Shown here piece by piece: positions 33,262 to 51,782 of a DNA stretch of 64,000 bases (positions are counted from its first letter, which is position 1; the number at the start of each line of letters is the position of its first letter). The stretch covers positions 1 to 64,000 of the forward strand of contig JAXDQU010000011.1 in the NCBI GenBank assembly GCA_034667685.1, written 5' to 3'. The notes under the pieces are model-generated. The model had not been told where the DNA came from. It did not search any database and saw only the letters and a list, made by a program, of their open reading frames with translations. This DNA is from Thermoplasmata archaeon (GTDB taxonomy: Archaea; Thermoplasmatota; SW-10-69-26; JACQPN01; JAJPHT01). Position numbers and translations under genes: made by a program.

Positions 33262-35460
33262 ATGCAAACCTTCGCCAAGCCGCTCCTGACGCTCGCGCTC
33301 GTCGGCCTCGTCGCCGCAGCCTTCGCCGGCTGCCTCAGCAACGCGCCCAAGACCAGCGGCGAGACCGCCATCAGCCGCGTCTACACGCTCGACACGGACA
33401 GCAAGACGCTCTCGTCGGTGGGCGGCAGCAAGTCGCCGGCCGACGCCATGCGCCAGCTCCTCAAGACCGACCTCGTCGTGCGCGTGGCTGACGCGGGGGC
33501 CTACACGCTCTCGTACACCGACGCCCAAGGAGTCGCGCGCACGGCGCCGCTCGCCGACCTCGTCCCCGGCACGCCCCACGTCGTCTCCGGCGCGGACCCG
33601 ATGGCGCCCGCGACGCTGAAGAACGCGGCGGGCGACGTCAAGGCGACCCGCGGCCCGCTCAACGCCACCTGGTGGCACGCGGGCGACGTCCCGCTGGGCT
33701 TCACGCTGGCGCCGGGCGCCTCGGCAAGCTACGCCACGACCTCCCTTCTCCACGAGGGCGTTACGCTCACCAACGTCAAGGCCGAGAACAACGTCACGCT
33801 CGACACCGCGCGCCTCGCGTTCACGCTCCCCGTCGAGGGCTCGTTCGCCTACACGCTGGGCGCGCCTGGCGCCGACGGAGCGCCGCTCGCCTCGACGCTC
33901 GACCTGCACGTGCCCGCCAACGCCGCCGACCTGCTCCTCGTGGACGCCACGGGCAGCATGGACGGCAAGCCCGGCACCGCGGGCGTCGACGTCTCCGCCG
34001 CCACGGCCCAGGTCAACCTCGGCGCGACGACCTGGTGGGACGACGGCGGCCCCACCGCGACGCGCTTCGACGGCGGCCACGCCACGTTCCAGCCCAGCGT
34101 CACCGCGTGGGTCACCGGCGGCTTCGTGCCCCAGGACGGCGCGGACGCCTCGAACTGCATCGGCAAGAGCCGCGCCGACAACTGCCACCCGGAGCAGCTC
34201 AATGGCACCACGCAGGACTGGCCCGCCGGCGAGAAGCAGGCCATCGCGGCCTCGGACCTCCCGCGGTCGACGACGTCGGAGTCGCGCGACGTGACGACCT
34301 TCCTCAAGGCGCTCTTCGCGCTCGACATGCAGCCCGGCGACGCGCTGCGCGTCAGCATGCGCGACAGCAGCCGCGAGGGAAGCAACGTCTACGACGTGCT
34401 GGAGACCTCGTCGCTGGAGGTCGTGGACCAGGAGAAGGTCACCGTCCCCGCGGGCACCTTCGACGCCCTCAAGGTCGTCCAGGAGGCGCGCATCGTCACG
34501 AACGTCGACCGCCTCTCCGACGGCTCGTCCGCCGGCCCCTCGATCGAGAACCTGCGCCTCAACGAGACCGTCGCGCGCTCGACCTACTGGTTCGACGCCA
34601 AGACCTACCAGCCCGTGAAGATGGAGACCTCGCTGCCCTTCGACGTCGACGCGGCCGCGAAGGCCATCATCCGCGCGGTGCAGCCGGGCGCGTGGAAGAC
34701 CGCCTCGCTGGAGACGCTCTCGCCCGACCAGGTGAAGCTGGAGCTCACGGCGACCGCGACGCTCCAGGCCACGAAGCTCGCCGACGCGCCCACGCTCGTC
34801 TCGCCCGTCGTCGCGCTGGGCCTCGCGCAGACGCTCGCCGCCGGCGCCGCCTACGCGCCCGTCGGGTTCGCGGCCTCCAGCGCGGGCCTCTCACCCGCCG
34901 CGCTGATGCCCAACAGCGGCCCGCCCCCGGAGATCGAGATGATACCGACGCCCGCGCCGTATCCGTACCCGACGCCGACGCCCCCGACGTCGTCCCCGAA
35001 CATCCACTGGCACGCCCTCTTCGACGTGTACGTGAACGGCGAGCGCATGCAGATCAGCCCGTCCACGGCGATCGCGCTCTTCTACGAGGGCGGCGCGCGC
35101 TTCCTCCCCGCGCACCTCCACCAGTGCAACCCGCGCCTCCTGCACAACGAGGGCGACGCCGAGAGCGGCTCGCTCGCGGCGCTGTTCAACGTGAACTGGG
35201 GGAGCCAGGGTGGCGCGCTCAAGCCCGACGACCTGACGATCCCCGAGGGCGCGACGCTCGCGGGCGACTACGCGGTCGACGAGACGCACGCCCTTCGGCT
35301 CTTCGAGAGCGACGACAACGGCCCCTGGCAGGAGGTCGACGTGACTGCGCCGATCACGGACCACGCGCGCTACGTCCTCGTGTACGGCGACGAGACGCCC
35401 GACCAGGTCGCGGCGTACGAGGCCGCGATGCCGGAGTTCACGACCGGCGCCGTGTGCTAG
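33262..35460 (+). CDS. Large lipoprotein with C-terminal His-motif domain
   Basis: Lipobox-like FAGC; VTVPAGTFDA motif; Pro linker; HWH..HLH..HNE. Confidence 0.75.
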   Translation: MQTFAKPLLTLALVGLVAAAFAGCLSNAPKTSGETAISRVYTLDTDSKTLSSVGGSKSPADAMRQLLKTDLVVRVADAGAYTLSYTDAQGVARTAPLADLVPGTPHVVSGADPMAPATLKNAAGDVKATRGPLNATWWHAGDVPLGFTLAPGASASYATTSLLHEGVTLTNVKAENNVTLDTARLAFTLPVEGSFAYTLGAPGADGAPLASTLDLHVPANAADLLLVDATGSMDGKPGTAGVDVSAATAQVNLGATTWWDDGGPTATRFDGGHATFQPSVTAWVTGGFVPQDGADASNCIGKSRADNCHPEQLNGTTQDWPAGEKQAIAASDLPRSTTSESRDVTTFLKALFALDMQPGDALRVSMRDSSREGSNVYDVLETSSLEVVDQEKVTVPAGTFDALKVVQEARIVTNVDRLSDGSSAGPSIENLRLNETVARSTYWFDAKTYQPVKMETSLPFDVDAAAKAIIRAVQPGAWKTASLETLSPDQVKLELTATATLQATKLADAPTLVSPVVALGLAQTLAAGAAYAPVGFAASSAGLSPAALMPNSGPPPEIEMIPTPAPYPYPTPTPPTSSPNIHWHALFDVYVNGERMQISPSTAIALFYEGGARFLPAHLHQCNPRLLHNEGDAESGSLAALFNVNWGSQGGALKPDDLTIPEGATLAGDYAVDETHALRLFESDDNGPWQEVDVTAPITDHARYVLVYGDETPDQVAAYEAAMPEFTTGAVC

Positions 35461-36719
35461 GGCGATCCGAGCGCGTCGCGGATGGGCTGACGGCGCAGCC
35501 GCGCCAGGGCCCACCGCGACGCGCCCACGCCCGCCGCCACCGCCAGCGCCAGGATCGCCAGCGCCACGAGCCACGAGGGGGCGGGCGGAGGGACCTTGAG
35601 CGCCGCGGCGCGGAACGCGAGCGCCAGGAGCCATGATAGCAGCGTGGCGAACGCCACGCCCACGACCCCGCCCGCCAGGCCCAGCCACAGGCCGAGGCCC
35701 TGGTAGACGCGGCCGAACGCCTGGTCGGGGATGCCGATGGCGCGCAGCGTGGCGAGCGTCGCGCGGTCCTCGCGCACCTGCCGCGCGAGGGTGTGCGCGA
35801 TCCACGCGCCGGTCATGAGCGTGAGCGACGCGACGACGATCCACGCCGTGACGCGCACGCTGTCGAACACCGGCCCGAGATAGCTTTCCCGGAACGGCCC
35901 GGACGCGATCGCCACGAAGCCGCGCTGCTGCGCCGAGGCCACGAGCGCGTGCTGGTCGCCCGCCGCGAGCACGACGTTGGCCGGCGGGTTCGTGGCGAAG
36001 TAGCCCAGGAGGCGCGCCACGTCGCCGCGCGGCGCGTAGACGACGAGCCGGTCGATCATGCGGAACCCCGTCGCGTACGTGCCCACGAGCAGGCCGTGCG
36101 CGGAGACGAGCTGGTTGTTCTCGACGTGGCCGGCCGTCAAGTTGTAGATGCTGCTCCAGGCGAAGGAGCCGTCGTACACGGTGAGGTTCGCGCTGTGCAC
36201 GAAGTCCTCGCCCGCGAAGATCGGCACGACGGGCTCGCCGTCGGGCAGCGTGGGCAACGCGCCCTGACGCCCGAGCATGACGCCCCGCGAGACGTAGGCG
36301 TCGAGGTCGACGACCTGCGCGTCGGCGTCCGGGTCGATGCCCACGAGGATCGCCGCCGAGCGCGTCGCGTTCGCCGCGCCCGCCGCCGTCGTGAAGTCCG
36401 CGCCGTGGAGGAAGATCCCCTCCGATTCGAGCCGGGGCGCGAAGCGCGCTGAAGGATTGTCATAGCGCAGCCCGGTGAGCACGTCCTGGAGGTCGGTCAT
36501 CGGCTCGCCGTCGCCCACGCCCGTCCGGGCGCGCGCGATGCGCACGTCGCCGCCCAGCGTCGTCGAGATCTCGCGCCCCACGCCGCCTTCGAGGCCGTCG
36601 ACCGAGGCGAGGACGAGGAAGTAGGTCGCGGACGTGGCCGCGAGCAGGATCGCCAGCGCGACGTACGTGCGCTTCCGGTTCGCCCACTCGGCGCGCATGA
36701 GATCGCGGGCGACGGTCAT
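35457..36719 (-). CDS. FtsX/LolE-like ABC permease
   Basis: N-terminal TM, large extracellular loop, ATLRAIG motif plus three TM helices. Confidence 0.8.
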   Translation of the reverse strand: MTVARDLMRAEWANRKRTYVALAILLAATSATYFLVLASVDGLEGGVGREISTTLGGDVRIARARTGVGDGEPMTDLQDVLTGLRYDNPSARFAPRLESEGIFLHGADFTTAAGAANATRSAAILVGIDPDADAQVVDLDAYVSRGVMLGRQGALPTLPDGEPVVPIFAGEDFVHSANLTVYDGSFAWSSIYNLTAGHVENNQLVSAHGLLVGTYATGFRMIDRLVVYAPRGDVARLLGYFATNPPANVVLAAGDQHALVASAQQRGFVAIASGPFRESYLGPVFDSVRVTAWIVVASLTLMTGAWIAHTLARQVREDRATLATLRAIGIPDQAFGRVYQGLGLWLGLAGGVVGVAFATLLSWLLALAFRAAALKVPPPAPSWLVALAILALAVAAGVGASRWALARLRRQPIRDALGSP

Positions 36720-37390
36720 GCGAGCCTTCCTCCCTCGATGCGCACCTGGCGCGCGCCGGGCGGCGCGAGACCCGGGTCGTGCGTGACGAGCATCAGCGCG
36801 GCCTCCGACTGCGCGCACGCCTCGTCGAGCGCGTCCATCACGCGGCGCGCGCTCTCGGGGTCGAGCTCGCCCGTGGGCTCGTCGGCCAGCACGAGGTAGG
36901 GCCGGTTCGCCAGCGCCCGCGCGACGGCGACGACCTGCTGCTGGCCGCCGGAAAGCTGGTGCGGCAGGTGGCCCGCACGCTCCGCGAGGCCCATGCGCGA
37001 GAGAAGCTCCGCGGCCCGGGCGCCGGCGTCCGTCGCTCCGGCAGCCTTCATCGGCAGCGCGACGTTCTCCTGCGCGCTCAGGCGCGGCAGCAGGTGGAAG
37101 TGCTGGAAGACGAAGCCGATGCCCGTCAGGCGCTCCCGCGCGCGCTCGGCGTCGGTGGCGCGCCAGAGGTCGCGCCCCTTGTGCAGCACCGTCCCGGCGT
37201 CGGGCGCGTCGAGCAGACCCGCCACCGCGAGGAGCGTCGTCTTGCCGCTGCCGCTGCGGCCGCGCACCACGACGCGCTCGCCCGCGGCGACGTCCAACGC
37301 GACGCCTTCGAGCGGCGTGACCACGTGCCCCGCGGCGCGGTAGGCGCGTCGCACGCCACGCAGCGCGAGGACCGGGGGCTCCACGCGCAT
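36716..37390 (-). CDS. ABC transporter ATPase (LolD/MacB-like)
   Basis: GRSGSGKTT, LSGGQQQ, LADEPTGELD, VTHD. Confidence 0.92.
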   Translation of the reverse strand: MRVEPPVLALRGVRRAYRAAGHVVTPLEGVALDVAAGERVVVRGRSGSGKTTLLAVAGLLDAPDAGTVLHKGRDLWRATDAERARERLTGIGFVFQHFHLLPRLSAQENVALPMKAAGATDAGARAAELLSRMGLAERAGHLPHQLSGGQQQVVAVARALANRPYLVLADEPTGELDPESARRVMDALDEACAQSEAALMLVTHDPGLAPPGARQVRIEGGRLA

Positions 37391-37435
37391 CGAGCAAGCG
37401 CAGCCTACAAGACCGTTGCCTAGCGTCGCGCCGCC

Positions 37436-38800
37436 GTGGACCTTCCGAACGCGAAGCGCGCGCAGGTGCTCGTCGGCATCCTGTTCACGGTGATCCTCGC
37501 CGGGCTGGACAACACCATCGTGGGCACGATCATGCCCGTCGCGCGCGCCGAGCTGGGAAGCCCCGGGCTCTACGCGTGGGCCTTCGCGGCCTACATGCTC
37601 GCCACGGCCATCTCGATGCCGCTCTGGGGTCCGGGCAGCGACCGCTGGGGGCGCAAGCGCACGTACCTCGTGGGCATCGCGGTGTTCACGCTGGGCAGCG
37701 CGCTCTGCGCGGCCGCGCCCACGATGCCGCTCTTCATCGCCGCGCGCACGCTCCAGGGCCTCGGCGCGGGCGCCGTGTCGAGCCTGCCCTTCATCGTGCT
37801 GGGCGTCGTCTTCCCGCCGCAGATGCGCGGCAAGGCGCTGGGCGTCGTGTCGAGCGCGTGGGCGATCGCGAGCGTCGCGGGCCCGGCGATGGGCTCCGCC
37901 GTCACGAGCTTCACCTCGTGGCGCTGGGCGTTCCTCATCAACGTCCCCATCGCGCTCCTGGCGGGCGCGCTGATCCTCCTCGCCATGCCCGAGAGCCACG
38001 GCGACCGCGAGGGGCGCTTCGACCTCGCGGGGGCGCTGCTCGCGGGCGTGGGCGGCGGCCTCCTGGTCTGGGCGTTCGTCGACATGGGCGAGGGGACGAT
38101 CGGCACGACGGAGTACGCGCTGGCCCTGGGCGGCCTCGCGCTGCTCGCGCTCTTCGTCTGGGTCGAGTCGCGCGCCGCGAAGCCGATCCTGCCGCTCGAC
38201 CTCTTCCGCCACCGCGGATACGCCGCGTCGATGGCCGCGAGCCTGCTCCTCTTCTTCACCGCGTTCGGCATCAGCGCCTACCTTCCGCTGCGCGCGCACG
38301 ACGTCCACGGGCCCGGCGCGGTGGGCTGGGTCGTGGGCGTGTTCACCATCGGCTGGAGCGGCTGCGCGTTCACCGCGGGGCGCATCGTCCACCGCGTGGG
38401 CGAGAGATCGCTGGGCCTCGTGGGCGTCGCGGTCCACGTCGCGGGCTTCCTCGCGCTCGCGCTCTTCTTCGACCGCAGCCTCGCGGCGGCGTGCCTCGCG
38501 GCCGGCGTCTGCGGCGCGGGCATGGGCATCCTCTCGCCCGGGCTCACGGTGGTCGTCCAGAACAGCGTCGAGGTGCGGCGCATGGCGAGCGCGACCACGA
38601 GCCAGCAGTTCGTCCGCCAGATCAGCGCCGCGCTGGGCGTCTCCGCGTTCGTGCTGCTCGCCGGGCTCCGCGGGTTCGTCTGGAGCCTCTACGCCTTCGC
38701 GCTCGTGGCGGCCGTCGCGCTCGCGTTCGTGGCGCTGCTGCCGCCGCACTCGCTCTCGGCTCACGGACCGGCCGGCGCGGCGCCGGCCGGCGAGCCCTGA
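37436..38800 (+). CDS. MFS drug:H+ antiporter (DHA2-like)
   Basis: LDNTIV, SDRWGRK, ARTLQGLG, WRWAFLINVP. Confidence 0.9.
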   Translation: MDLPNAKRAQVLVGILFTVILAGLDNTIVGTIMPVARAELGSPGLYAWAFAAYMLATAISMPLWGPGSDRWGRKRTYLVGIAVFTLGSALCAAAPTMPLFIAARTLQGLGAGAVSSLPFIVLGVVFPPQMRGKALGVVSSAWAIASVAGPAMGSAVTSFTSWRWAFLINVPIALLAGALILLAMPESHGDREGRFDLAGALLAGVGGGLLVWAFVDMGEGTIGTTEYALALGGLALLALFVWVESRAAKPILPLDLFRHRGYAASMAASLLLFFTAFGISAYLPLRAHDVHGPGAVGWVVGVFTIGWSGCAFTAGRIVHRVGERSLGLVGVAVHVAGFLALALFFDRSLAAACLAAGVCGAGMGILSPGLTVVVQNSVEVRRMASATTSQQFVRQISAALGVSAFVLLAGLRGFVWSLYAFALVAAVALAFVALLPPHSLSAHGPAGAAPAGEP

Positions 38801-40377
38801 GGCCCGGCGAGGGTCGCCGCCAGGCGCAGCGACGAGCGGTAACGCCGCGGCGCCCCGCCGTCGTGCTCGACGAGGCCCAGGCCCCCGAGCCGGCGGAGGT
38901 GGTACGCGACGAGGCGCCGGGGGAGCCCGGTCCGCGCGATGATATCACCCTGGGTCAGGCCCTCCGGCGCGGCGCCCACGACCTCGGCGAGACGGCGGCG
39001 CGTGCCGGACTTGAGCTGCGCCTTCGCGCGCAACGTCTCCGGGTCGAGGGAGCGCCGGGCAGGCAGGTAGAGCAGGCGCCCCTCCACGCGACGCGAGACG
39101 ATGAGCCGCTGCGCCTCCAGGACCGCGAGATGGTGGCGCACGACGACGCGGGCGATGCCGGTCGCGCGCGAGACGTCCGCGGGACATTGGCCCGGCGAGT
39201 CGGAAAGAAGCGCGTGGATGCGGGCGCGGTTCGCGTTCGCCAGCGCGTCGGCCGGCGCGATGCGCGAGTAGAGCGGCACGAGCAGCGCGCGCGCCAGGAG
39301 CACGAGCGCCGCGAGGATCGCGCCGCCCAGGCCGATGCGCGCCGCGAGGGCCGCGGACGAGGCGGACGCGCCGGCCGCCGCGCGCGTCTCGTGATCGCCC
39401 ACGCGCACGAGGGTCGCGTCGCCGCGCACGCCCGAGGCGAGGGGCGCGCCCCCCAGCGCGTCGGTGGCCGGGGCGCCGGCGGAGGGAGAGCGCGTCGCGT
39501 CGAGGAGCAAGGCGCCTTCGAGGCGGATCGGCTGGTGGCGGAACGAGGTCTGGTTGCCGGCGTAGTCCAGCGTGCCGCTGGCGTCGGGCGAGGCGAGCGC
39601 GCCCTGGAGGTCGAGCTCCGCCTTCTCGGCGAGCAGCTCGGCGGGGCCGCTCCCCTGGAGCACGGACGCTCCGGTCAGGTTGAGCCAGGCGTGGCGGTCG
39701 ACGCCCTGGTAGACGACGGGTGGGAGCGGCGCGACGGCGGGGTCGCGGCTCGTCGTCGCGTCGAGCGACTCGTTGCCGCGCGCGGTCTCGACGATGGCGG
39801 AGGCGCCCTTCAGGAAGAGGGTCACGCGGCCCGAGGCGAGAAGATGCGGCGACCCACCCAGGAGAGCCGGTCCCGCAACGAGCGCGCCGGTGGGCTCGTC
39901 GCGCCTGAAGGCGTCTTCGCCCGTGCATTCACGGCTGCAAAAACGCTCGCCAAGCGGGAGCGTGGCGAGGCGGCCCGACGCGTTCCCCTCGAGGCCGAGG
40001 CGGCCTCCCCCCGAGACGACGAGGATGACGCGGCAATCCTCCTGGCACGCGAAGCTTCGGATCGTCGCGTTGGAGGTCTGGATGGGGTCGTCGGCCGGGC
40101 CGCTCTGGGGTCCTTCCTCCACGGGCCCTGCTTGGGCTCCGACGATGCTGCGCGTGATCCGGTGCCCGTCCACGAGGCTCGCGTGCAGCGCGAGCGGCGC
40201 CCCGGCGCGCACGAAGGGGGTCAGGTTGAGCACGCCATCGGCCGTCGACAACACGACGTGGCCCGAGAGATCGATGCCGATCGCGGGATCGAGCGAGCCC
40301 CGGATCGGCGAGGCGCCCGCGAAGGCCGCCACGAGAAGCGTCGTGGCGAGCGCGGCGTAGACGCCTCCGCGGAGCAT
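38761..40377 (-). CDS. Receptor-like membrane-anchored tandem wHTH regulator, copy 1
   Basis: Signal peptide, ectodomain with CQEDC, TM helix, LYSRI, ARVVVRHHL, RRLVAYHL. Confidence 0.8.
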   Translation of the reverse strand: MLRGGVYAALATTLLVAAFAGASPIRGSLDPAIGIDLSGHVVLSTADGVLNLTPFVRAGAPLALHASLVDGHRITRSIVGAQAGPVEEGPQSGPADDPIQTSNATIRSFACQEDCRVILVVSGGGRLGLEGNASGRLATLPLGERFCSRECTGEDAFRRDEPTGALVAGPALLGGSPHLLASGRVTLFLKGASAIVETARGNESLDATTSRDPAVAPLPPVVYQGVDRHAWLNLTGASVLQGSGPAELLAEKAELDLQGALASPDASGTLDYAGNQTSFRHQPIRLEGALLLDATRSPSAGAPATDALGGAPLASGVRGDATLVRVGDHETRAAAGASASSAALAARIGLGGAILAALVLLARALLVPLYSRIAPADALANANRARIHALLSDSPGQCPADVSRATGIARVVVRHHLAVLEAQRLIVSRRVEGRLLYLPARRSLDPETLRAKAQLKSGTRRRLAEVVGAAPEGLTQGDIIARTGLPRRLVAYHLRRLGGLGLVEHDGGAPRRYRSSLRLAATLAGPQGSPAGAAPAGP

Positions 40378-40447
40378 GCGGGGCGGAGTGCGCCCGCGAG
40401 GACTTGAGCGTTCGCGTGCGCGCTGCCCCGCCGGGTACAACATGCGA

Positions 40448-40461
40448 CTACGCACCTTATG
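40448..40461 (+). promoter_or_regulatory. Shared CTAC-N3-CCTTATG motif (TATA-like)
   Basis: Ends 25 nt before ATG 40487; same motif at 44000-44013. Confidence 0.55.
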
Positions 40462-40486
40462 TTGTGGCCCGCGCACACCCGCCCCG

Positions 40487-40879
40487 ATGGGCACCTTCCG
40501 TTTGGGCCTCGCCCTCGTCCTGACCCTCGCGCTCGCCGCCCCCCTGGCGAGCGCCATTCCCCTCTACCCCGGCAATCCCCCCTTCGTGGTCGGGGGTCCG
40601 CTGGGTCGGCTCCTGAGCCAGGATCCCGTGGGCCACATCGCCAAAGTGAACGCCCCCTGCGCCCAGGACGCGCAGGCGTGCCTGATCAACGAGCTCCTGG
40701 AGTACTGCGTGTACCACCCCGACGCGCCCGTCTGCGTCCAGACGGCGGAGGAAGTCGCATGGATGATCGTGTGCCTGACGCCGGACCAGGGCGTCGGGCT
40801 CAACCTCGAGGGACCGGGAAGCGGATGCATGCCACTCACGAGCTACGTCCCGCCGCCCCCCTCCGGCCTACCGCCGTGA
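40487..40879 (+). CDS. Small secreted Cys/Pro-rich protein, partner of copy 1
   Basis: Signal peptide ending ASA; 6 Cys; 130 aa; divergent from the regulator. Confidence 0.7.
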   Translation: MGTFRLGLALVLTLALAAPLASAIPLYPGNPPFVVGGPLGRLLSQDPVGHIAKVNAPCAQDAQACLINELLEYCVYHPDAPVCVQTAEEVAWMIVCLTPDQGVGLNLEGPGSGCMPLTSYVPPPPSGLPP

Positions 40880-41635
40880 GCGCGCCTTGAGCATCGCCCG
40901 CGCCGCGGCGTGGGGCGCCACCGCGTTCGCCGCGCGGCCGATCGCGCCCACCAGCGAAAGATCGACCTCGGGCGTGCGGCGCTTCGCGGCGCGGACGAGC
41001 GCCTTCGCGACGTGCTCCACGCTCTGGCTTCCGGGCACCTTGGCGCGGGCTCCTGGCGCGCCGGGCGCGGCGAGCCGCCGGTCCGCGAAGCCGGTGTCCA
41101 CGCCGCCGGGCGACAGCAACGTCAGGCCCACGCCGTCGGCCTCCAGCTCGGGGCGCGCGCTGCGCGTCCAGCCCGTGAGGGCCCACTTGCTCGCCGCGTA
41201 GACGGACGAGAGCGGCACGGGCGCCTTGCCCGCCTGCGAGCCCACCACGACGACGTGCCCCTTGGCGGCGCGCAGCGCGGGGCCGAACGCATGGACGGTC
41301 CGCAGCACGCCCACGAGGTTCGTGTCGAGCACGCGCGTGACGTCCTCCATCGGCATGTCGAGGAACGCGCCGTACTGGCCCACGCCCGCGTTCGCCACGA
41401 GGACGTCCACCGCGGGACCGCACGACGCGGCGAACGCGCGCACGTCGGCCTCGCTCGTGACGTCGCACGCGCGCCACACGGCCTCGGGCGCGCCGAGCCC
41501 CTTGGCGACCTCGGCCACCTCGCGCAGCGCGGGCCCGTGGCGCGCGCAGAGCGCGAGGCGCGCCCCCTCGCGCGCGAAGGCGAGCGCGGCGGCCTTGCCG
41601 ATGCCGCTGGAGGCGCCGGTGATGACGACGAGCAT
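40868..41635 (-). CDS. Short-chain dehydrogenase/reductase
   Basis: TGASSGIG, ANAG, YAASK. Confidence 0.92.
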   Translation of the reverse strand: MLVVITGASSGIGKAAALAFAREGARLALCARHGPALREVAEVAKGLGAPEAVWRACDVTSEADVRAFAASCGPAVDVLVANAGVGQYGAFLDMPMEDVTRVLDTNLVGVLRTVHAFGPALRAAKGHVVVVGSQAGKAPVPLSSVYAASKWALTGWTRSARPELEADGVGLTLLSPGGVDTGFADRRLAAPGAPGARAKVPGSQSVEHVAKALVRAAKRRTPEVDLSLVGAIGRAANAVAPHAAARAMLKARSRR

Positions 41636-41639
41636 GGTC

Positions 41640-42293
41640 TCACTTCGCCGGGATCATCTTCAGCGCGTGCGTCCACTTGCCCGTGCGGAAGCCGTGCACG
41701 ATCCAGACGAGCGCGATCGCCTCGAGCAGGCGCGCGGCCTCGATCCCGCCCAGGTCGATGATATCACGCCAGCCCAGCTCGCGCAGCAGCTCCTCGGCGC
41801 GCCGCTTCGCCGCCTCGTCGTCGCCCGCGACGAACATGGTCGGATCGCCGAACGCGCCCGGGTCGTCCATCTGCGCATGGCTCACGACGTTGAGCGTCTT
41901 GACGACCTTCGCGCCCGGCGCCCAGCGCTGCACGCGCTCGCCCGCGCTGTCGTTCCCCGAGACGGCCAGGAGGGGAGGAAGGCCACCCTCGCGGTACGTC
42001 AACGGGTTCGTCACGTCGATGAGGAGCTTGCCGCGCAGCCGCTCCGGCCCCGCCAGGCGCACCGCGTTCTCCGTGCCCGACCAGTCGGTCGCCAGCACGA
42101 CGACCTCGCCGAACGTCGCGGCCTCGGCGTTGGTGCCCGCCTTCGCCCCGGTCTCCTTCGTCCACGCCACGACATCCTCGCGCCCCGGCTCGCGCGTCCC
42201 CATCGTCACCGGATGGCCGAGCTTCGCGAACGCGCCCGCGAGCTGCTTGCCCACATCGCCCGAGCCGATCACGCCGATCTTGAGCTTCGACAT
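41640..42293 (-). CDS. NADPH-dependent F420 reductase-like dinucleotide-binding protein
   Basis: GVIGSGDVG, IDVTNP, VVKTLN, AGDD, DLGG. Confidence 0.85.
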   Translation of the reverse strand: MSKLKIGVIGSGDVGKQLAGAFAKLGHPVTMGTREPGREDVVAWTKETGAKAGTNAEAATFGEVVVLATDWSGTENAVRLAGPERLRGKLLIDVTNPLTYREGGLPPLLAVSGNDSAGERVQRWAPGAKVVKTLNVVSHAQMDDPGAFGDPTMFVAGDDEAAKRRAEELLRELGWRDIIDLGGIEAARLLEAIALVWIVHGFRTGKWTHALKMIPAK

Positions 42294-42328
42294 GGCCTGG
42301 CATCGGGCGATCCCCGGATGAACCCGGC

Positions 42329-43921
42329 CTAGGATGCCGCAGGCGTGGTCTGCAGCGCGGGCCCCGCGACGTAGCGCTGCGGCATGCCCGGCTCCCGGCG
42401 GACCAGGCCCGCCGACTCCATGCGCTGGAGGTGGTGCGCCACCAGGCGGCGCGACAGGCCGGTCAGGCCCGCGAGCTGCATCTGCGTCTGCGGCGCGGGC
42501 GCGCTTGCGAGCGCCTGCGCGATCCGCGCGCGCGACGCATCGCGCAGGAGCCAGCCCGCGTCCGTCGCCGCGCCCTCGTTGACGCGCTCCGGCGGCGCGA
42601 ACGCCACGCTGCGCCCGTGCGGCCGCGCCACGAGCATCTTGTGCACCACGAGCATCCGCAGGTGGTGCTGCGCCACGACGCGCGCCAGCCCCGCCTCGCG
42701 CGCCACCTCCGTGGCGGTGAGCCCCGGACGCGCCGAAAGGAGCGCGAGGATGCGCTGCCGGTTCTCGTTCGCGAGCACGGTCGCATGGTTGATGCGGCTG
42801 TAGAAGGGCGCCGCGAGGGCGTGGCGGGCGAGGAAGATCGCCAGCGCGGCGAACGCGAGCAGCGAGATCCCCGCCGCGGCCTGGGCCGGCGTCGTCGGCT
42901 CAGGGCGAAGCGGGATCGCCACCCCTCCGACGCTGGCGACGCGCGCCTGGCCCGAGAAGGTCCCGGCGACGGCATTGAGCGCGCCCGCTTCCTTCAGCGA
43001 TTCTGGGGGATCCGGCCGCCGGGGATCGAACGTCAGCGTGCCCTCCAGCTTGAGCGCATCCTTGTCCAGGACGTACCGGTGGCCATCCACCTCCATCCAG
43101 CCGCTGGTCGAGGGCGCGGCGAGGGCGCCGTCGAGCGCGACGCGCAGCGTGGGCGCCAGGAGGGAGCCCGCCGCGTTGGGGACCTGGACGTCCGAGCCGT
43201 CGAGGTCGAGCACGAGGAAACGCTCCGTCTCCTTCTGGGCCAGCGTCTGGGTCCCGGCTGGTCCGAGCACGGGCGTGGTGAACCGCCCCGTGTCAAAGCT
43301 TGCCTCGCCGCCGGTGTCGTTGCGGAGCGTGACTTGGACGCCGTAGGCCATGACCTCGATCTGGCCGGTCGCGCGGGCGGTGGCCGAGGAGAGGCCCGGC
43401 CCGGCGGCCGCGCCGAACGGGACAAGGTAGCTGCCCGCGGGAGCCTCGTAGTAGTAGTTGTCGGGCGTCCCCTCCTGGAGCGCGTTCACGGCGAAGACGA
43501 GCGGGAGCGCGGTCAACGCGGGGAGCCGCGCGGACGCGCCCGAAACCGACAGGGCGCCGTGGCCTTCCGGGTAGACGACGAGCTCGCATCCGTCGCGGCA
43601 GCCCGAGAACGTGACGTTGCCGGAGAGGAGCGAGACGGTGTCGTTCTCGGGCACGTCCTGGCTTGCGGGGCCCTGGGCAACACGGGTGCGGGAGGTCGTG
43701 ACCACGTAGCCGTGGGCCGCCCGCGCGTGGGCCACGAGCGTCCCGCCTAGCCGAAGGGAGGGCGCAAGGTCCAGGAGGCCCGCGTCCGCGCTCGTCACGG
43801 CGTGGCCGGTGGCCGAGCCGCCATGGCCGAAGACGAGGTCGCCGCGGACCGCCGAGGTCGCCAGCGCGGCAGGCGTCAGGAGCAGGACCAGCGTCGCGAT
43901 CGTGATGAGCGAAGCGCGCAT
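42329..43921 (-). CDS. Receptor-like membrane-anchored tandem wHTH regulator, copy 2
   Basis: Signal peptide, CRDGC, TM helix, FYSRI, ARVVAQHHL, RRLVAHHL. Confidence 0.8.
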   Translation of the reverse strand: MRASLITIATLVLLLTPAALATSAVRGDLVFGHGGSATGHAVTSADAGLLDLAPSLRLGGTLVAHARAAHGYVVTTSRTRVAQGPASQDVPENDTVSLLSGNVTFSGCRDGCELVVYPEGHGALSVSGASARLPALTALPLVFAVNALQEGTPDNYYYEAPAGSYLVPFGAAAGPGLSSATARATGQIEVMAYGVQVTLRNDTGGEASFDTGRFTTPVLGPAGTQTLAQKETERFLVLDLDGSDVQVPNAAGSLLAPTLRVALDGALAAPSTSGWMEVDGHRYVLDKDALKLEGTLTFDPRRPDPPESLKEAGALNAVAGTFSGQARVASVGGVAIPLRPEPTTPAQAAAGISLLAFAALAIFLARHALAAPFYSRINHATVLANENRQRILALLSARPGLTATEVAREAGLARVVAQHHLRMLVVHKMLVARPHGRSVAFAPPERVNEGAATDAGWLLRDASRARIAQALASAPAPQTQMQLAGLTGLSRRLVAHHLQRMESAGLVRREPGMPQRYVAGPALQTTPAAS

Positions 43922-43999
43922 CGAAGCCTCCGGAGCGCACGAGGCGATCCACGGAGAAAAGCCCACCGCCGGGGTCCACGAGGGCTGGAAACCGAACGC

Positions 44000-44013
44000 C
44001 TACTAGCCTTATG
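44000..44013 (+). promoter_or_regulatory. Shared CTAC-N3-CCTTATG motif (TATA-like)
   Basis: Ends 24 nt before ATG 44038. Confidence 0.55.
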
Positions 44014-44037
44014 ATGGCCCGGCTCCACTACGCGCGC

Positions 44038-44289
44038 ATGAGGCTGTTCCTGTTAGGGCTTCTTCTCATGCTTCTCGTCGTCGTGGCTTCTCCTGCGTTG
44101 GCGACGCCGCCGCTTCCCGTTCCGGACAACCCCCTGGGGCCGCTCCCCCCGAGCCCCGATCTGGCGTGCGTCACGCCCGGCGACCCCCTGCACCACCCGC
44201 CGTACCTGTGCCACGTCGACAGGCTCTTCTCGCCGCTGCTGACGGAAATCCTGTGCTCCCCGGGCAACGTGCCCGGCTGTTACTCCTGA
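44038..44289 (+). CDS. Small secreted Cys/Pro-rich protein, partner of copy 2
   Basis: Signal peptide ending ALA; 4 Cys; 83 aa; divergent from the regulator. Confidence 0.7.
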   Translation: MRLFLLGLLLMLLVVVASPALATPPLPVPDNPLGPLPPSPDLACVTPGDPLHHPPYLCHVDRLFSPLLTEILCSPGNVPGCYS

Positions 44290-44343
44290 GCCGGTCGCGG
44301 CCCGCGCGGGCAAAACGCCCGCGCGGGCGAGAGGATCCGGACC

Positions 44344-45699
<1,356 letters not shown>

Positions 45700-45923
45700 G
45701 GAATGCACACCTTCGGCCACGCGGGGCCGCTGGCCCATCGAGTGGGATCGCGTACTTATGGGTTTCCGAAAAACAGAGCGACGCCCGCACGGCCAGTGGG
45801 CCATTTCACGTACGTTTGCACACCATTTCCGATGGAGCTTGATCCGTCTGGCCGGAACGATCGGAAGAAGCTGGGCGGCGCGGCGCGCAATCCCGCACAC
45901 CTGTCGGGCCAGGCGCGCCCCGC

Positions 45924-47459
45924 TCAGCCGCTCGCCGCGTCGGCGGAGAGCGCCGGCGCGAGCGGGCTCGCGCGATAGCGGCGCGGCGACGCTCCGTCGT
46001 GCGGCTCCAGGAAGCCGGCCTGCTCCAGCCGGCCCAGGTGGTACGACACGAGCCGCTGCGAGAAGCCGGTGCGCTCCACCAGATCGCGCTGCGTGAGGCC
46101 GGCCGGCGCGCCGGCGACCAGCGCCGCGATGGCGCGCCGCGTCGGATCGCGCACGCTCGCCGAGCGCTCGACCTCGCGCGGAGCGACCTCGCCCACGACG
46201 TGATAGCACCGGATCGCGCCGTGCCGCTGGCTCGCGACGTGGCCGCTGTTCTCCAGCATCCGCAGGTGGTGCCGCACGACGATGCGGTGCGCGCCGGTCC
46301 AGCGCACGAGGTCGGCCGTCGTGGCCGCCGGCCGCTCCAGGAGCAGCGCGTGGATGCGCTGGCGCATGGGGTGCTTGAGCGCGCGCGAGGGCGCGATGCG
46401 CGTGTAGAGCGCGAGCGCGCCCGCGACCGCGAGCAGGCCCAGGATGGTGACGCCGCCCGCGACGGCGGCCTTCTGGGCGCTCAGGCCTCCGAGAAGATCC
46501 ACGCCGGCGGCGGACGCCCGCGTGGCGGTGCCCACGAGGCTGATCCTCATCGGCTCCGGGGCCGGCGCGAGCAGGCCGCTGGCCTGGCGCGACCCCGAGA
46601 CCGCGACCTGCAGCGCGCCTTCCAGCGCGAGCGTCCCCCCGCCCAGCGAGTGGGGGATCCAGCCCACGGTGATGTCGCCCGCCGCGCTCCCGGCGGCGAG
46701 GCGGCCCTGCACGTCCACGGCGTCCGTGGTCCCCTCCAGCGTGAAGGGCGAGAGCCCCTCGATGCGCGGGTCGACGAGATCGAGCCACACCCACCGCGTG
46801 TGGGCCTGGGTGAGGAGCGGCTGGCCGGGCGCGTCGCTGCGCGGCTCCTCCCGCTCGAACGTGTCGATCTCGCCCGCGCTCGTGTGGAGCGTCGCGTTGA
46901 GCAGGACGAGGTGGACGTGCGAGGGGAGGACGGGGGTGCCGGCGGCGCCGGTGGCCTCCAGCGTTCCGGCCGGCTCGGTCACGACGTACTCGGAGTCCGG
47001 CCCGCTGCCGGCGGTCGAGGTCCGGAAGGTCCGGGGGCGGTCGAGCTCGTGCAACGCGAGCTGGTCCGTCTCGACGCCGAGCGGATCGCTCGATGCGAGC
47101 ACGAGGAAGCAGCTCTCCTTGCACGTGATGGTGGCGCCCTGCGTCGCGCCGAGCGAGAGCGCGCTCCGGGTCCCGTTGGGCGTGCCGTAGCCTGGCGAGT
47201 GCGGCCAGATCGGCAGGCCGGTGTGGACGAGCTGGTGATAGCGGTCGATCTGCTCGCCCCGGGCCGAGGCGAAGGAGAGGGAGATCGGATGCCCCGGCGC
47301 CGCCGAGAGGTCGAGGAGCCCGTCCGTCGCCCGCGCCGAGATCGCGCCTTGAAGGCCCACGCCGCCCACGAGCGTCGCCTGGGCGTGGACCGGAGCGCCC
47401 GCGCTGGCCCCGGCGGCGGGGAGGAGGACGAGGAGCGCGACGAGCAGGGCGGCTCGCAT
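45924..47459 (-). CDS. Receptor-like membrane-anchored tandem wHTH regulator, copy 3
   Basis: Signal peptide, CKESC, TM helix, LYTRI, HRIVVRHHL, QRLVSYHL. Confidence 0.8.
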   Translation of the reverse strand: MRAALLVALLVLLPAAGASAGAPVHAQATLVGGVGLQGAISARATDGLLDLSAAPGHPISLSFASARGEQIDRYHQLVHTGLPIWPHSPGYGTPNGTRSALSLGATQGATITCKESCFLVLASSDPLGVETDQLALHELDRPRTFRTSTAGSGPDSEYVVTEPAGTLEATGAAGTPVLPSHVHLVLLNATLHTSAGEIDTFEREEPRSDAPGQPLLTQAHTRWVWLDLVDPRIEGLSPFTLEGTTDAVDVQGRLAAGSAAGDITVGWIPHSLGGGTLALEGALQVAVSGSRQASGLLAPAPEPMRISLVGTATRASAAGVDLLGGLSAQKAAVAGGVTILGLLAVAGALALYTRIAPSRALKHPMRQRIHALLLERPAATTADLVRWTGAHRIVVRHHLRMLENSGHVASQRHGAIRCYHVVGEVAPREVERSASVRDPTRRAIAALVAGAPAGLTQRDLVERTGFSQRLVSYHLGRLEQAGFLEPHDGASPRRYRASPLAPALSADAASG

Positions 47460-47468
47460 CGCATCACC

Positions 47469-47834
47469 TCAGGGGAGCATGGGCAGGCGCGGGATCTGCG
47501 CCGGAGGGAGCGCGACGAGCGGGGGCGGGCTCGGGATCGTGCTGACCGAGTCGACCGTGCAGGTCATGGGGTCGATCTGCTGCGGGTCGGGCTGCGTGTT
47601 GAGCACGCACGTGATCTCGTACTGGACCCAGACCTCGCTGTCGTAGACGTACACCAGGAAGTGGACCACGTTGCCCTCGTACGACGCGCTCGCACCCAGG
47701 CCCAGCCGCGGCATGGTGCATTGGCCATCGTCCGAGATGGGGGGCGATCCCTGCGGGTCGATGCAGGGGTCGGCGGATCCTGTGGGGATCCACGTGGTCG
47801 CAAGGAGGACCAAGACAACGAGAACGCTCTTCAT
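47469..47834 (-). CDS. Small secreted Cys/Pro-rich protein, partner of copy 3
   Basis: Signal peptide; 4 Cys; 121 aa; co-oriented 9 nt upstream of the regulator. Confidence 0.7.
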   Translation of the reverse strand: MKSVLVVLVLLATTWIPTGSADPCIDPQGSPPISDDGQCTMPRLGLGASASYEGNVVHFLVYVYDSEVWVQYEITCVLNTQPDPQQIDPMTCTVDSVSTIPSPPPLVALPPAQIPRLPMLP

Positions 47835-47928
47835 GACAGCAAGTCTCCCGGCGCCCGAGGCCTCTTGCGACGTCATAAACATAGGTAGCCAGCTTGTTTC
47901 TGAGGGCTGCCCGTCCGGAGATGGCCTT

Positions 47929-47986
47929 CAGGATTGGACGAATGACCGATTCTTTCACCGAAGCCCTTTTCATTTGGCCAATCCTG
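47929..47986. promoter_or_regulatory. 17-bp imperfect inverted repeat upstream of the Lrp gene
   Basis: caggattggacgaatga / tcatttggccaatcctg, 15/17 complementary. Confidence 0.5.
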
Positions 47987-48037
47987 CCCCGATCCGTGGA
48001 GCCAACCGAGGGCGCGGACCTGGCCGTTCGCCGGAAG

Positions 48038-48544
48038 ATGGGATTCCTCCTGGAGCAGCCGGTGCGCACGCGCGCCAAGCCCGGCCCGAAGCCGCAGGAG
48101 GGGCTCGACGACGTGGACGTGGGCATCATGCGCGCGCTCAACCAGGACGCCCGCAAGAGCTACCGCGACCTCGCGAAGGAGCTCCAGCTCGCCCTCTCGA
48201 CGGTGAGCGCGCGCGTCAAGCGCCTGGAGGCGCAGGGCTACATCACGGGCTACGTCCCGGTCATCGACGCGCAGAAGCTCGGCTTCGACCTCGTGGTGGT
48301 CGTGGGCGTGAAGATCGCGCACGGCAAGCTCCTGGAGGCGCAGCAGAAGATCGCCAAGCTCGCCCGCGTCTTCGCCGTCTACGACGTGACGGGCGACTGG
48401 GACAGCATCATCATCGCGCGCTTCCGCGACCGCGAGGAGCTCAACGACTTCGTGAAGGACCTGCTCGCGATGCCACACGTGGAGCGCACGGGCACCCAGC
48501 TCGTCCTAAACACGGTGAAAGAGGAGCGGCGCGTCCTCTTCTGA
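48038..48544 (+). CDS. Lrp/AsnC family regulator
   Basis: LDDVD..DARKSYRDLAKEL..RVKRLE..VYDVTGDWD. Confidence 0.92.
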   Translation: MGFLLEQPVRTRAKPGPKPQEGLDDVDVGIMRALNQDARKSYRDLAKELQLALSTVSARVKRLEAQGYITGYVPVIDAQKLGFDLVVVVGVKIAHGKLLEAQQKIAKLARVFAVYDVTGDWDSIIIARFRDREELNDFVKDLLAMPHVERTGTQLVLNTVKEERRVLF

Positions 48545-48583
48545 GCGTCAGGGATTTGCACGATGCGGCGCGAAGAGGCGCGC

Positions 48584-48694
48584 ATGGTCGAGGTCGTCGG
48601 GCCCTGCCCGCTCTGCGGCCAGCCGATCGCCGCCTTCGCGCCGAACGTCGTGACGGCCCACGGGCCCGGCGTCTGCACGCCCGCTCAGTCCTGA
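48584..48694 (+). CDS. CPxCG zinc-finger microprotein (36 aa)
   Basis: MVEVVGPCPLCGQPIAAFAPNVVTAHGPGVCTPAQS. Confidence 0.45.
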   Translation: MVEVVGPCPLCGQPIAAFAPNVVTAHGPGVCTPAQS

Positions 48695-49086
48695 TCGAGG
48701 TGGAGGCGGACCTCGTACCCGTCGAGGTCGTGGAAGGCGACGCCCCAGCCCTGCTTGCCGCGGCGCAGGCCCGAGTGCAGCACGTTCTCGGTGTCGAGGT
48801 GCGCGAGCCAGGCGTCCATCGCATGGCCGTCGGGGAGCGTGAAGCCCACGAGGTTCGCGCCCGCGAGCGCCGCCGCGCGCTGCGGATCCGCCACGAGCGC
48901 GAGCAGCAGGCCCGTCGGCGCGTGGCGCAGCGTGACCTGGCCGGGCTCCGCGAGCGCGGGCTCCGGCGCGAAGCCCATGACGCGCGCGTACCACGCCGCG
49001 GCGCCGCGCGGGTCGCGCGAGAACAGTTTCAGCGTGTGGACGCCGGCGAGCGCGGGGGCGTCGAGCGCGACGAGGCGGGCGGTCAT
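48685..49086 (-). CDS. VOC/glyoxalase family protein
   Basis: D..AAAWYARVMGF..FHDLDGYEV. Confidence 0.75.
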   Translation of the reverse strand: MTARLVALDAPALAGVHTLKLFSRDPRGAAAWYARVMGFAPEPALAEPGQVTLRHAPTGLLLALVADPQRAAALAGANLVGFTLPDGHAMDAWLAHLDTENVLHSGLRRGKQGWGVAFHDLDGYEVRLHLDQD

Positions 49087-49170
49087 GCGCGGTACGCCGC
49101 TCCTTGCCACAAAGGCGTTGCGAATCCGTTCTGGGCTAAGGCTAAGGCGGAGGCTGAGGCTCGGGGCGCG

Positions 49171-50070
49171 ATGCTCTTCGCCGAAGAGGTCGTCGCGCAG
49201 CACTTCGTCCCGACGTGGCGCGGGCTGCTCGCGCGCCGGCTCCACGAGCTGGGCCTCCCGCAGGTCGAGATCGCGGCGGCGCTCTCCGTCACGCAGTCGG
49301 CGGTCTCGAAGCACCTGCAGGGCAAGCTCGCGCTGGAGCCGCGCCTGGCGGGCGACGCGCGGGTGCGCGAGGCCGTCGAGCGCGTGGCGCAAGGCATCAT
49401 GGCGAAGCGGCTCTCCGCGTTCGAGGCGCTCCTGGAGGCCGAGGCGCTGGTGCGCGCGCTGGAGGACCGCGGCCCGATCTGCGCGATCCACGAGGAGGAG
49501 ATGCCGGCGCTCGCGGGGCTGGGCTGCGACATCTGCATCCGCGCGGGCGGCTCGATGCTGCGCGCCGAGCAGGCCGCCCTGATGGACCTGCGCGCCGCGG
49601 TCCGCATCCTGGAAGCGACGCCTGGCCTCGCGGCGCACCTGCCGCACGTGGGCACCAACGTCGCCCGCGCGGTGCCGGGCGCGACGGACGTCTCGGAGGT
49701 CGCCGCGATCCCGGGCGGGCTCTTCGAGACGCGCGGCGTCGTCAAGGTCGCGGCGCCCCCGGAACTTGGCGTGTCGCGCCACGTCGCGGAGGTGCTGCTC
49801 GCGGTGCTCCGCGCCGACCCCGCGCGCCTCGCGTGCCTGAACCTCGCGCCCGCGCCCGCGCTCCTGGCCGGGGCGCGCGCCGCGGGGCTGCGCGTCGAGG
49901 AGGTGGCGCCGGAGGTCGAGCGCGCGCCCGGCCGGCTCCGCTTTGCGGGCGCGGTGCCCGACGTCTTCCACCACGCGGGCGCCTTCGGCGTCGAGCCCCA
50001 GGCGTACCTCACCGGACCGGACGCCACCACGCTCGCTTTACAAGTCCGGCGGATCCTGGACATGTCATGA
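49171..50070 (+). CDS. HTH plus ThiN-domain regulator (ThiR-like)
   Basis: EEVV..QVEIAAALSVTQSAVSKH; PHVGTNVA, VAAIPG, PELGVSRHVA, GAFGVEP. Confidence 0.82.
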   Translation: MLFAEEVVAQHFVPTWRGLLARRLHELGLPQVEIAAALSVTQSAVSKHLQGKLALEPRLAGDARVREAVERVAQGIMAKRLSAFEALLEAEALVRALEDRGPICAIHEEEMPALAGLGCDICIRAGGSMLRAEQAALMDLRAAVRILEATPGLAAHLPHVGTNVARAVPGATDVSEVAAIPGGLFETRGVVKVAAPPELGVSRHVAEVLLAVLRADPARLACLNLAPAPALLAGARAAGLRVEEVAPEVERAPGRLRFAGAVPDVFHHAGAFGVEPQAYLTGPDATTLALQVRRILDMS

Positions 50071-50145
50071 GGTTCGAGTCAGGAATCCTTATGCGCCAGC
50101 GCCTCCTCGGCAAATCCGGACCCCCCGTCCGGTGACTTCCGAGCC

Positions 50146-51516: not shown

Positions 51517-51558
51517 CCATCCGGGAGGCGTGGACACGCCTGCGCGGCCTGGGGCGTG

Positions 51559-51782
51559 GGTCAGGTGACTAGACACCTTGTCGCGGGACGGCAGGTCAGG
51601 TGACTAGACAGGTGACGCAGCGCCCGTTCTCAAGGTGTCTAGTTCTGACCTTGCCAAGCCCATCATGGTGAACGCCAGGGGGTCCAGGGGGCCGCAGCCC
51701 GCCGCGCAAGGGCGCGGCGAGGCCGAACCGGAGTTCGGCCGGACCTGGCGCGGGGGTGCAGGGGGGCGCGCAGCCCCCCTGC
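51559..51782. repeat. Cluster of REP-like palindromic repeats
   Basis: ggtcaggtgactagaca twice (51559, 51594) plus an inverted variant at 51631-51650; hairpin 51721-51740; G/C hairpin motifs at 51678 and 51752. Confidence 0.8.

Follow-up and report, generated by a model that had tools for sequence, protein, structure and literature searches.

The DNA analyzed here, which we call the window, is a stretch of 64,000 nucleotides (nt) from a Thermoplasmata archaeon (assembly GCA_034667685.1, contig JAXDQU010000011.1, our contig C11, positions 1 to 64,000), part of a genome of 3.48 Mb that is 99% complete and about 72% GC. Between positions 38761 and 47834 it carries three genes for receptor-like membrane proteins with built-in DNA-binding domains, receptor-regulators A, B, and C, and at the 5′ end of each a gene for a small, cysteine-containing secreted protein, sA, sB, and sC. 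A first-pass annotation, made from the letters alone, had proposed three paralogues of 538, 530, and 511 amino acids (aa) here, with a signal peptide, a beta-rich ectodomain, a transmembrane (TM) helix, and two winged helix-turn-helix (wHTH) domains; open reading frames (ORFs), Pfam searches, and AlphaFold2 (AF2) models of C confirm this at 38761..40377 (A, 538 aa), 42329..43921 (B, 530 aa), and 45924..47459 (C, 511 aa), all on the minus strand. A and B were called from ORF, alignment, Pfam (HTH_5, MarR_2, and HTH_24 in A), and a TM heuristic. The three share 33-34% mutual identity in the alignment. Each runs from a signal peptide into an all-beta, Asn-poor ectodomain of about 320 aa, followed by one TM helix and then, past an L/F-Y-S/T-R-I motif, by two ArsR-like wHTH domains. 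In A, the ectodomain has a CxxxC motif and 6 N-x-S/T sequons, the TM helix spans aa 348-366, and the motif reads LYSRI; B (TM aa 346-364, FYSRI) and C (LYTRI) have the same architecture. The alignment also displays the collinear ectodomain anchors noticed in the first pass, including G-L-L-D/N-L, CxxxC, and LEG, and beyond them L/FY(S/T)RI, RVVxxHHL, and RLVxYHL.

An AF2 model of full-length C (16-row alignment; predicted local distance difference test [pLDDT], 82.3) consists of an N-terminal helix, an all-beta part at residues 22-317, a TM helix, and two wHTH domains. On the minus strand, these correspond to a signal peptide at aa 1-21 (47397..47459; alignment, hydrophobicity, and AF2), an ectodomain at aa 22-332 (46464..47396), a TM helix at aa 333-351 (46407..46463; hydrophobicity, and a helix in the model), and a cytoplasmic part at aa 352-511 (45927..46406), in which the juxtamembrane LYTRI precedes the two ArsR-like wHTH domains (Pfam, NCBIfam, Foldseek, and phmmer). 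Modeled from a 140-row alignment, the C ectodomain, which holds a CKESC motif, is all-beta with strands of up to 27 residues (pLDDT, 91.2; predicted template modeling score, 0.87). Two C-terminal wHTH stretches in each protein score above the curated Pfam cutoffs (HTH_5 at 37.7-39.5 bits versus 22; also MarR_2, HTH_24, and HTH_20). The NCBIfam model of ArsR/SmtB metalloregulators, NF033788 HTH_metalloreg (cutoff, 55), gives 64.4 bits for C, 53.5 for B, and 44.0 for A, so that only C exceeds it. In Foldseek, the C-terminal part of C matches ArsR/SmtB structures with a probability of 1.0, and the closest solved relative, ArsR 6j05, was also found by phmmer.

The small genes were examined in the same way. 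sA (40487..40879, plus strand) is divergent from A and encodes 130 aa with a signal peptide (..APLASA), 6 Cys, and a Pro-rich tail ending in GLPP. sB (44011..44289, plus strand) is divergent from B; its 92 aa include a signal peptide (..SPALA), 4 Cys, and 18% Pro. sC (47469..47834, minus strand) is co-oriented with C, 9 nt upstream of it, and encodes 121 aa with a signal peptide (..PTGSA), 4 Cys, and a Pro-rich tail ending in PMLP; since the two genes lie on the same strand 9 nt apart, they are likely an operon. The first-pass claim that each receptor has a small secreted even-Cys gene at its 5′ end, divergent twice and co-oriented once, thus stands. All three proteins have AxA-type cleavage sites, 15-18% Pro, and 4-6 Cys, and they lack a second hydrophobic segment. 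Type IV pilin-like signal peptides were considered for the partners and dropped, as the N termini have AxA sites and look like Sec signals of the usual kind. sA, sB, and sC are all retained by a rough gene caller of our own, which relies on codon usage learned from 871 long ORFs of this genome; the lowest coding score of the three, 15.4, is that of sB. GC at third codon positions (GC3) is 0.86-0.91 in these genes versus 0.92-0.98 in their neighbors, and GC is distributed over the codon positions as in coding DNA. sC has a homologue, P0157 (123 aa, 46% identity), in which the four Cys, the signal peptide, and the final ..LP (..VLP there) are all conserved; this conservation settles the start of sC in favor of the 121-aa form and against a database call of 81 aa. 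A homologue search with sA matched only itself, tblastn against this genome and 12 related loci returned no relatives of sA, sB, or sC, and the three are not detectably related to one another.

We then considered what the ectodomains are. Those of A, B, and C have no Pfam match. A search of the fold against PDB gave no relatives (best Foldseek TM score, 0.12; probability, ≤0.33), a viral structure library gave no match (TM score, ≤0.16), the ESM Atlas gave nothing usable, the sequence profile had 0 hits in PDB, and a word-based homologue search with the C ectodomain found only itself. In these searches the ectodomain matches no characterized family. A profile built from 16 ectodomain sequences and run against 1.84 billion representatives is more productive: 651 clusters match at an E value of ≤1e-3, 321 at ≤1e-10, and 120 at ≤1e-30. 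The best 150 of the 651 are mostly about 480-590 aa long, the same fused architecture, and roughly ten are shorter and fragment-like. The few source names are "predicted transcriptional regulator" and [quoted passage not shown] and the ectodomain type was found in 19 of the 21 genomes examined for the class. Across 16 proteins (A, B, C, and 13 homologues), N-x-S/T sequons hold 42 of the 64 ectodomain Asn residues, where shuffling predicts 7.9, and in the cytoplasmic parts a single sequon occurs among 39 Asn residues. We read this bias as selection for N-glycosylation of an outward-facing domain; it suggests that the ectodomains are heavily N-glycosylated. Together with the AF2 layout and the signal and TM heuristics, it supports the type I receptor-like topology proposed earlier.

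The three receptors are not a self-contained set, as the first pass had treated them. A profile of the TM-plus-wHTH module matches 61 proteins in the gene set of this genome. In 30 of them the N terminus is signal-like and a TM helix immediately precedes the module, with ectodomains of about 50 to 730 aa. The remaining 31 do not have that TM helix, and 15-18 of this group are soluble proteins with a double wHTH and a length of about 150-210 aa. At least 9 of the roughly 30 membrane regulators have the window ectodomain type. A Pfam scan of ten other members found nine without an ectodomain family and one with Ig-like/NPCBM_assoc domains. Both wHTH domains and an L-Y-x-R motif at the membrane edge align across the 30 regulators, and the motif is almost universal there. 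Very divergent ectodomains are thus joined to a conserved double-wHTH output, in agreement with the earlier proposal. Matches to the module occur in 36 of 40 related genomes, and genomes of the same class have at least 10-37 each, with up to 36 candidates scored per genome. Just past the window end, C11:65079-67142 encodes a 687-aa member with TM and double wHTH and a different ectodomain.

Adjacent small secreted ORFs are enriched among the homologues, as the first-pass annotation implied they should be. Under a strict heuristic (a hydrophobic core near the N terminus, no TM segment after it, and a length of ≤200 aa), such an ORF lies immediately upstream of 12/30 regulators, compared with 328/3542 for all genes (Fisher P, ~6e-6) and 57/614 for other large signal-peptide proteins (~2e-5). 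There is no excess on the downstream side (2/30 regulators). All nine ectodomain-type members of this genome have an upstream Cys-containing ORF of ≤170 aa, and seven of these pass the strict heuristic; the two that fail are C33_1 (170 aa, 10 Cys), which has one more hydrophobic stretch, and C89_70 (94 aa), in which the called start probably truncates the signal. In related genomes, the set comprised twelve loci from seven genomes, five genera, and two families of the order, with one further receptor at a contig end left out. All 13 ectodomain-type receptors with available upstream DNA have such an ORF there, 8 through gene calls and 5 through a lenient scan of lower-GC loci, for which the background in this genome is 90/378, measured with a GC3 filter that the scan of the related loci did not have. 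In total, a small Cys-containing ORF lies upstream at 22/22 ectodomain-type loci inspected, nearly always with a signal-peptide-like start. Most pairs are divergent, with 68-164 bp between the genes (14 divergent regions inspected); sC-C, with its 9 nt, and one related-genome locus are co-directional.

This positional pairing is conserved despite rapid sequence divergence of both genes. Within the genus, the Lrp/AsnC gene is 77.5% identical, and the receptor adjoining it is about 40% identical to C over the wHTH module only; BLAST detected no ectodomain similarity between the two, and the partner of that receptor could not be aligned with sC. At this conserved Lrp/AsnC gene, a comparison of L046 (G002:C5) with window positions 45924-48544 also shows the partner in flipped orientation. 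In an all-versus-all BLASTP of 31 small neighbor proteins, the upstream partners of different receptors were alike only in their signal peptides, and the few genuine matches were tandem or adjacent duplicates within one locus.

Two side observations concern the small proteins. A C terminus of hydrophobic-L-P or LPP, often after a Pro-rich tail, is common in small secreted Cys proteins genome-wide. Counted post hoc, a C-terminal "LP" is found in 48/3542 proteins overall, 18/365 small secreted proteins, and 6/20 listed ectodomain-type partners; small genes with such ends include window positions 40487-40879 and 47469-47834 and C95:9491-9742, C122:37293-37658, and C89:4901-5122. Larger Cys-rich signal-peptide proteins (159-288 aa, 9-18 Cys), some of them tandem paralogues, adjoin receptors at L043:6863-8464, L050:8127-8606, and L044:10955-11797.

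The same regulator type also occurs as two genes. In seven proteins of this genome, a signal-like start is followed by an ectodomain, a TM helix, and, in place of wHTH domains, a cytoplasmic helical-repeat tail of 110-150 aa with weak TPR matches below the Pfam cutoffs (C28:29616-31205, C50:68373-70220, C92:3948-5432, C42:26879-28402, C54:17840-19486, C96:102-1694, and C79:13257-14978). Homology to the window type covers the membrane-proximal half of their ectodomain (hhalign, 98.1%; E value, 6.9e-14; 174 columns). Five of the seven genes have a double-wHTH gene within 500 bp; a sixth lies at a contig end, and the last is an unclear case. Small Cys proteins with a signal peptide are also encoded at several of these loci. 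The split form shows that a window-type ectodomain and a double-wHTH regulator work together even as separate genes. This arrangement suggests that holding the regulator at the membrane, or releasing it, is part of the mechanism.

Control regions were inspected at the divergent pairs. Those of A/sA (40378..40486, 109 bp) and B/sB (43922..44010, 89 bp) are compact, and the former has a TATA-like ATAAG about 27 nt from the sA start. Genome-wide, an AT-rich peak lies at −35 to −26 from start codons, with the words CTTAT(C/G) and CTTTTC and with GAAAC at about −40; its position points to mostly leaderless mRNAs. TATA-like ATAA(G/C/T) elements 24-38 nt from the partner start in 8/14 divergent regions fit this pattern. 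The first-pass annotation had also stressed the nearly invariant recognition helices. Their motifs are there, but xHHLxxL is a general signature of ArsR/SmtB recognition helices, and since the helices largely follow it, they do not show a shared operator. As a side observation made with no control comparison, 8/14 regions have a GTTTC(C)-like element between two TATA-like boxes, ~48-93 nt upstream of the receptor start: B (43922-44010), C33, L043, L045, L049, L050, L052, and L053.

The window neighbors of the receptor genes encode MFS and SDR proteins, an F420-type oxidoreductase, glutamine synthetase, Lrp/AsnC, ThiN, and an ABC/FtsX pair. A functional link of the receptors to these genes was considered and dropped, since the neighbor functions are unrelated. 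Runs containing window DNA are labeled soil metagenome, with no RNA run listed among them; four soil or rhizosphere runs compared with positions 35400-51600 at 80% likeness gave identical or near-identical strain pieces and much cross-organism noise, from which no usable view of strain-level differences in receptors or partners emerged.

How do these proteins relate to known systems? A census of transmembrane transcription regulators defines them by at least one TM region along with a domain predicted to bind DNA in one protein (PMC10269533). Receptors A, B, and C have both, a TM helix by hydrophobicity and AF2 and wHTH domains above the Pfam cutoffs. The census counts 4 ± 2 such regulators per archaeal genome, compared with about 30 here, and its main text contains no Thermoplasm* name (PMC10269533). 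ToxR, CadC, and TcpP are likewise single-pass membrane proteins that join an extracytoplasmic sensor to a DNA-binding domain. In ToxR/CadC, however, an N-terminal cytoplasmic wHTH of the OmpR type (Trans_reg_C) is followed by the TM helix and a C-terminal periplasmic sensor. The order here is reversed: the sensor comes first, behind a cleavable signal peptide, two ArsR-like wHTH domains are C-terminal, and Trans_reg_C does not match. The best reading of the receptors is thus that they are transmembrane one-component transcription regulators with a topology reversed relative to ToxR/CadC. ArsR/SmtB repressors are the family that both wHTH domains match, with HTH_5 in all three proteins and also HTH_20 and HTH_metalloreg. 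They are soluble homodimers with a metal or ligand site (alpha3N/alpha5), whereas here each chain has two wHTH domains and is anchored in the membrane. In ArnR, the HTH is N-terminal and the TM helices are C-terminal, and the protein is not known to have a large ectodomain or a secreted partner. ArnR and ArnR1 of Sulfolobus acidocaldarius are also archaeal membrane-bound one-component regulators (PMC6396743).

We found no description of this receptor-partner family in open-access papers and bioRxiv, in line with the first-pass remark that it is not a described system; a bacterial analogue does exist, however, in the co-component systems VtrA/VtrC and ToxR/ToxS. These are described as a membrane-tethered regulator beside a small, fast-evolving extracytoplasmic partner that is found by neighborhood rather than by sequence (PMC9214523). 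This class is the closest analogue in logic to what we see. There are differences. The VtrA/VtrC partner gene is overlapping and downstream, whereas the partner here is always adjacent (22/22) and mostly divergent and upstream. A VtrC-type partner is membrane anchored with a lipocalin-like beta-barrel, while the partner here, whose fold is unsettled, is rich in Cys and Pro, has a cleavable-looking signal peptide, and has no sign of a lipocalin. VtrA/VtrC is an obligate extracytoplasmic heterodimer of bacteria; the cassette here is archaeal, and a heterodimer in it is hypothetical. Looking further afield, RRNPP systems (Rap-Phr and PlcR-PapR) have many paralogous receptor genes, each with an adjacent small secreted partner gene; their receptors are cytoplasmic TPR proteins that bind imported peptides. 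The sensor here is extracellular and all-beta, and TPR-like repeats are found only in the split-form tail. In anti-sigma/extracytoplasmic function (ECF) pairs, a membrane protein may hold a soluble regulator, as in the split form. This is a likeness of logic only; to our knowledge, archaea have no sigma factors.

Considering all this, the pairing of a receptor with a fast-evolving secreted mini-protein looks like an undescribed sensing cassette. The receptor is a single-pass type I membrane protein with a probably glycosylated all-beta ectodomain outside and tandem ArsR-like wHTH domains directly beneath the membrane, where the two may act as an intramolecular pseudo-dimer. The product of the gene on its 5′ side would be exported and, after signal-peptide cleavage, become a disulfide-bonded mini-protein that may act on its cognate ectodomain as a ligand or co-sensor. 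The state of the ectodomain would then alter the action of the wHTH domains on DNA; the simplest site for this would be the compact promoter region between the pair's own divergent genes. We give this composite reading, a membrane one-component regulator whose secreted cognate partner changes wHTH binding to DNA as a ligand or co-sensor, about an even chance of being right. What the sequences themselves show is the layout of the receptors, the extent of their family, the kept position of the partner gene, the speed of divergence, and a split variant in which this ectodomain type goes with soluble double-wHTH proteins.

Several points weigh against it. DNA binding, contact between partner and ectodomain, and the direction of regulation are all steps that we infer, and for the contact in particular this counts against the reading; a complex prediction of the C ectodomain (140-row alignment) with mature sC gave "no answer" (score, 0.00; partner fold uncertain) and is evidence neither way. 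The partners form no sequence family, so "partner" is defined solely by position and composition. The signal-peptide and TM calls come from our own hydrophobicity heuristics, which are permissive and flag 1233/3542 proteins. With just 12/30 regulators passing the strict neighbor test, pairing is a trait of the subfamily and not of the whole expansion, and the soluble double-wHTH genes as a group have no excess of small secreted neighbors (3/15 versus 649/3542). Between the TM helix and the first wHTH there is only a very short tether, which may get in the way of DNA binding at the membrane. Finally, no shared operator was found in the 14 divergent regions, 7-mers with one mismatch being no more frequent than in shuffles.

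The strongest rival, which we consider possible though improbable, is that the small secreted protein is merely a regulated product. The receptor would sense some other external cue and switch on its divergent neighbor, for instance a mini-protein with a surface, antimicrobial, or adhesion role, without the two ever touching. A divergent layout with a shared control region of 70-165 bp, as in the 14 inspected pairs, is the classic regulator-target arrangement, and mutually unrelated partner sequences fit a varied cargo. On the other hand, some pairs are co-directional and nearly abutting (sC-C and the related-genome pair), which suggests co-production rather than control, and across genera the pairing persists although the sequences of both genes have turned over completely. 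Features of both kinds would be expected of an autoinducing loop, so these findings leave the composite reading compatible with the data.

A bolder form of the ligand idea is that the cassettes are self-produced ligand-receptor pairs, in which hypervariable disulfide mini-proteins are read by cognate type I receptors with a built-in transcription factor, for cell-cell communication or kin recognition. The logic would be that of peptide-pheromone cassettes or the plant S-locus, where tightly linked ligand and receptor genes co-diverge, and each genome would have many such channels. The first-pass idea of quorum, kin, or surface sensing is likewise conjectural. We regard the ligand-receptor form as a tentative and rather unlikely proposal.

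Comparable doubt attaches to proteolytic release, in which the wHTH module is freed from the membrane after an ectodomain trigger and then acts as a soluble regulator, with LY(S/T)RI marking the release region. The short tether favors it, as do the near universality of L-Y-x-R at the membrane edge of the 30 regulators and the split form, where the same regulator type is a soluble protein of 170-190 aa encoded beside a membrane receptor gene. However, related hydrophobic-x-R stretches open some soluble paralogues (e.g., LYNRV), so L-Y-x-R may belong to the fold rather than to a cleavage site, and the window has no linked protease gene. In addition, bacterial membrane regulators act while tethered, according to the census (PMC10269533).

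It is very improbable that the proteins are not transcription regulators at all and instead have a surface or structural role, with the wHTH tail tying DNA or other proteins to the membrane. Tandem wHTH domains also occur in nonregulators, a full-length Foldseek search returned RPC62 and ScpB, and the operator search came up empty; yet ArsR/SmtB repressors give the best matches in both sequence and fold, and the ~15-18 soluble paralogues are sized like ordinary regulators. Least credible of all is that the small ORFs are chance frames and the pairing an artifact, for although long spurious ORFs are common at ~72% GC, the coding score of sB is low, and sA has no homologue, the codon-position GC is typical of genes, sC has a conserved homologue, TATA-like elements lie at the right distance, and the position is kept at 22/22 loci with enrichment on the upstream side only.

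How archaea sense the outside is poorly understood, and only a small number of membrane-bound regulators are known from them, about 4 per genome according to the census (PMC10269533). In the class of soil Thermoplasmatota described here, ~1% of the genes encode receptor-like regulators whose topology is reversed. Even with partners that are co-sensors or targets, the cassettes are a separate archaeal equivalent of the bacterial co-component regulators and can readily supply orthogonal sensor-output pairs. With ligands as partners, archaea would have their first described protein-ligand signaling cassette.

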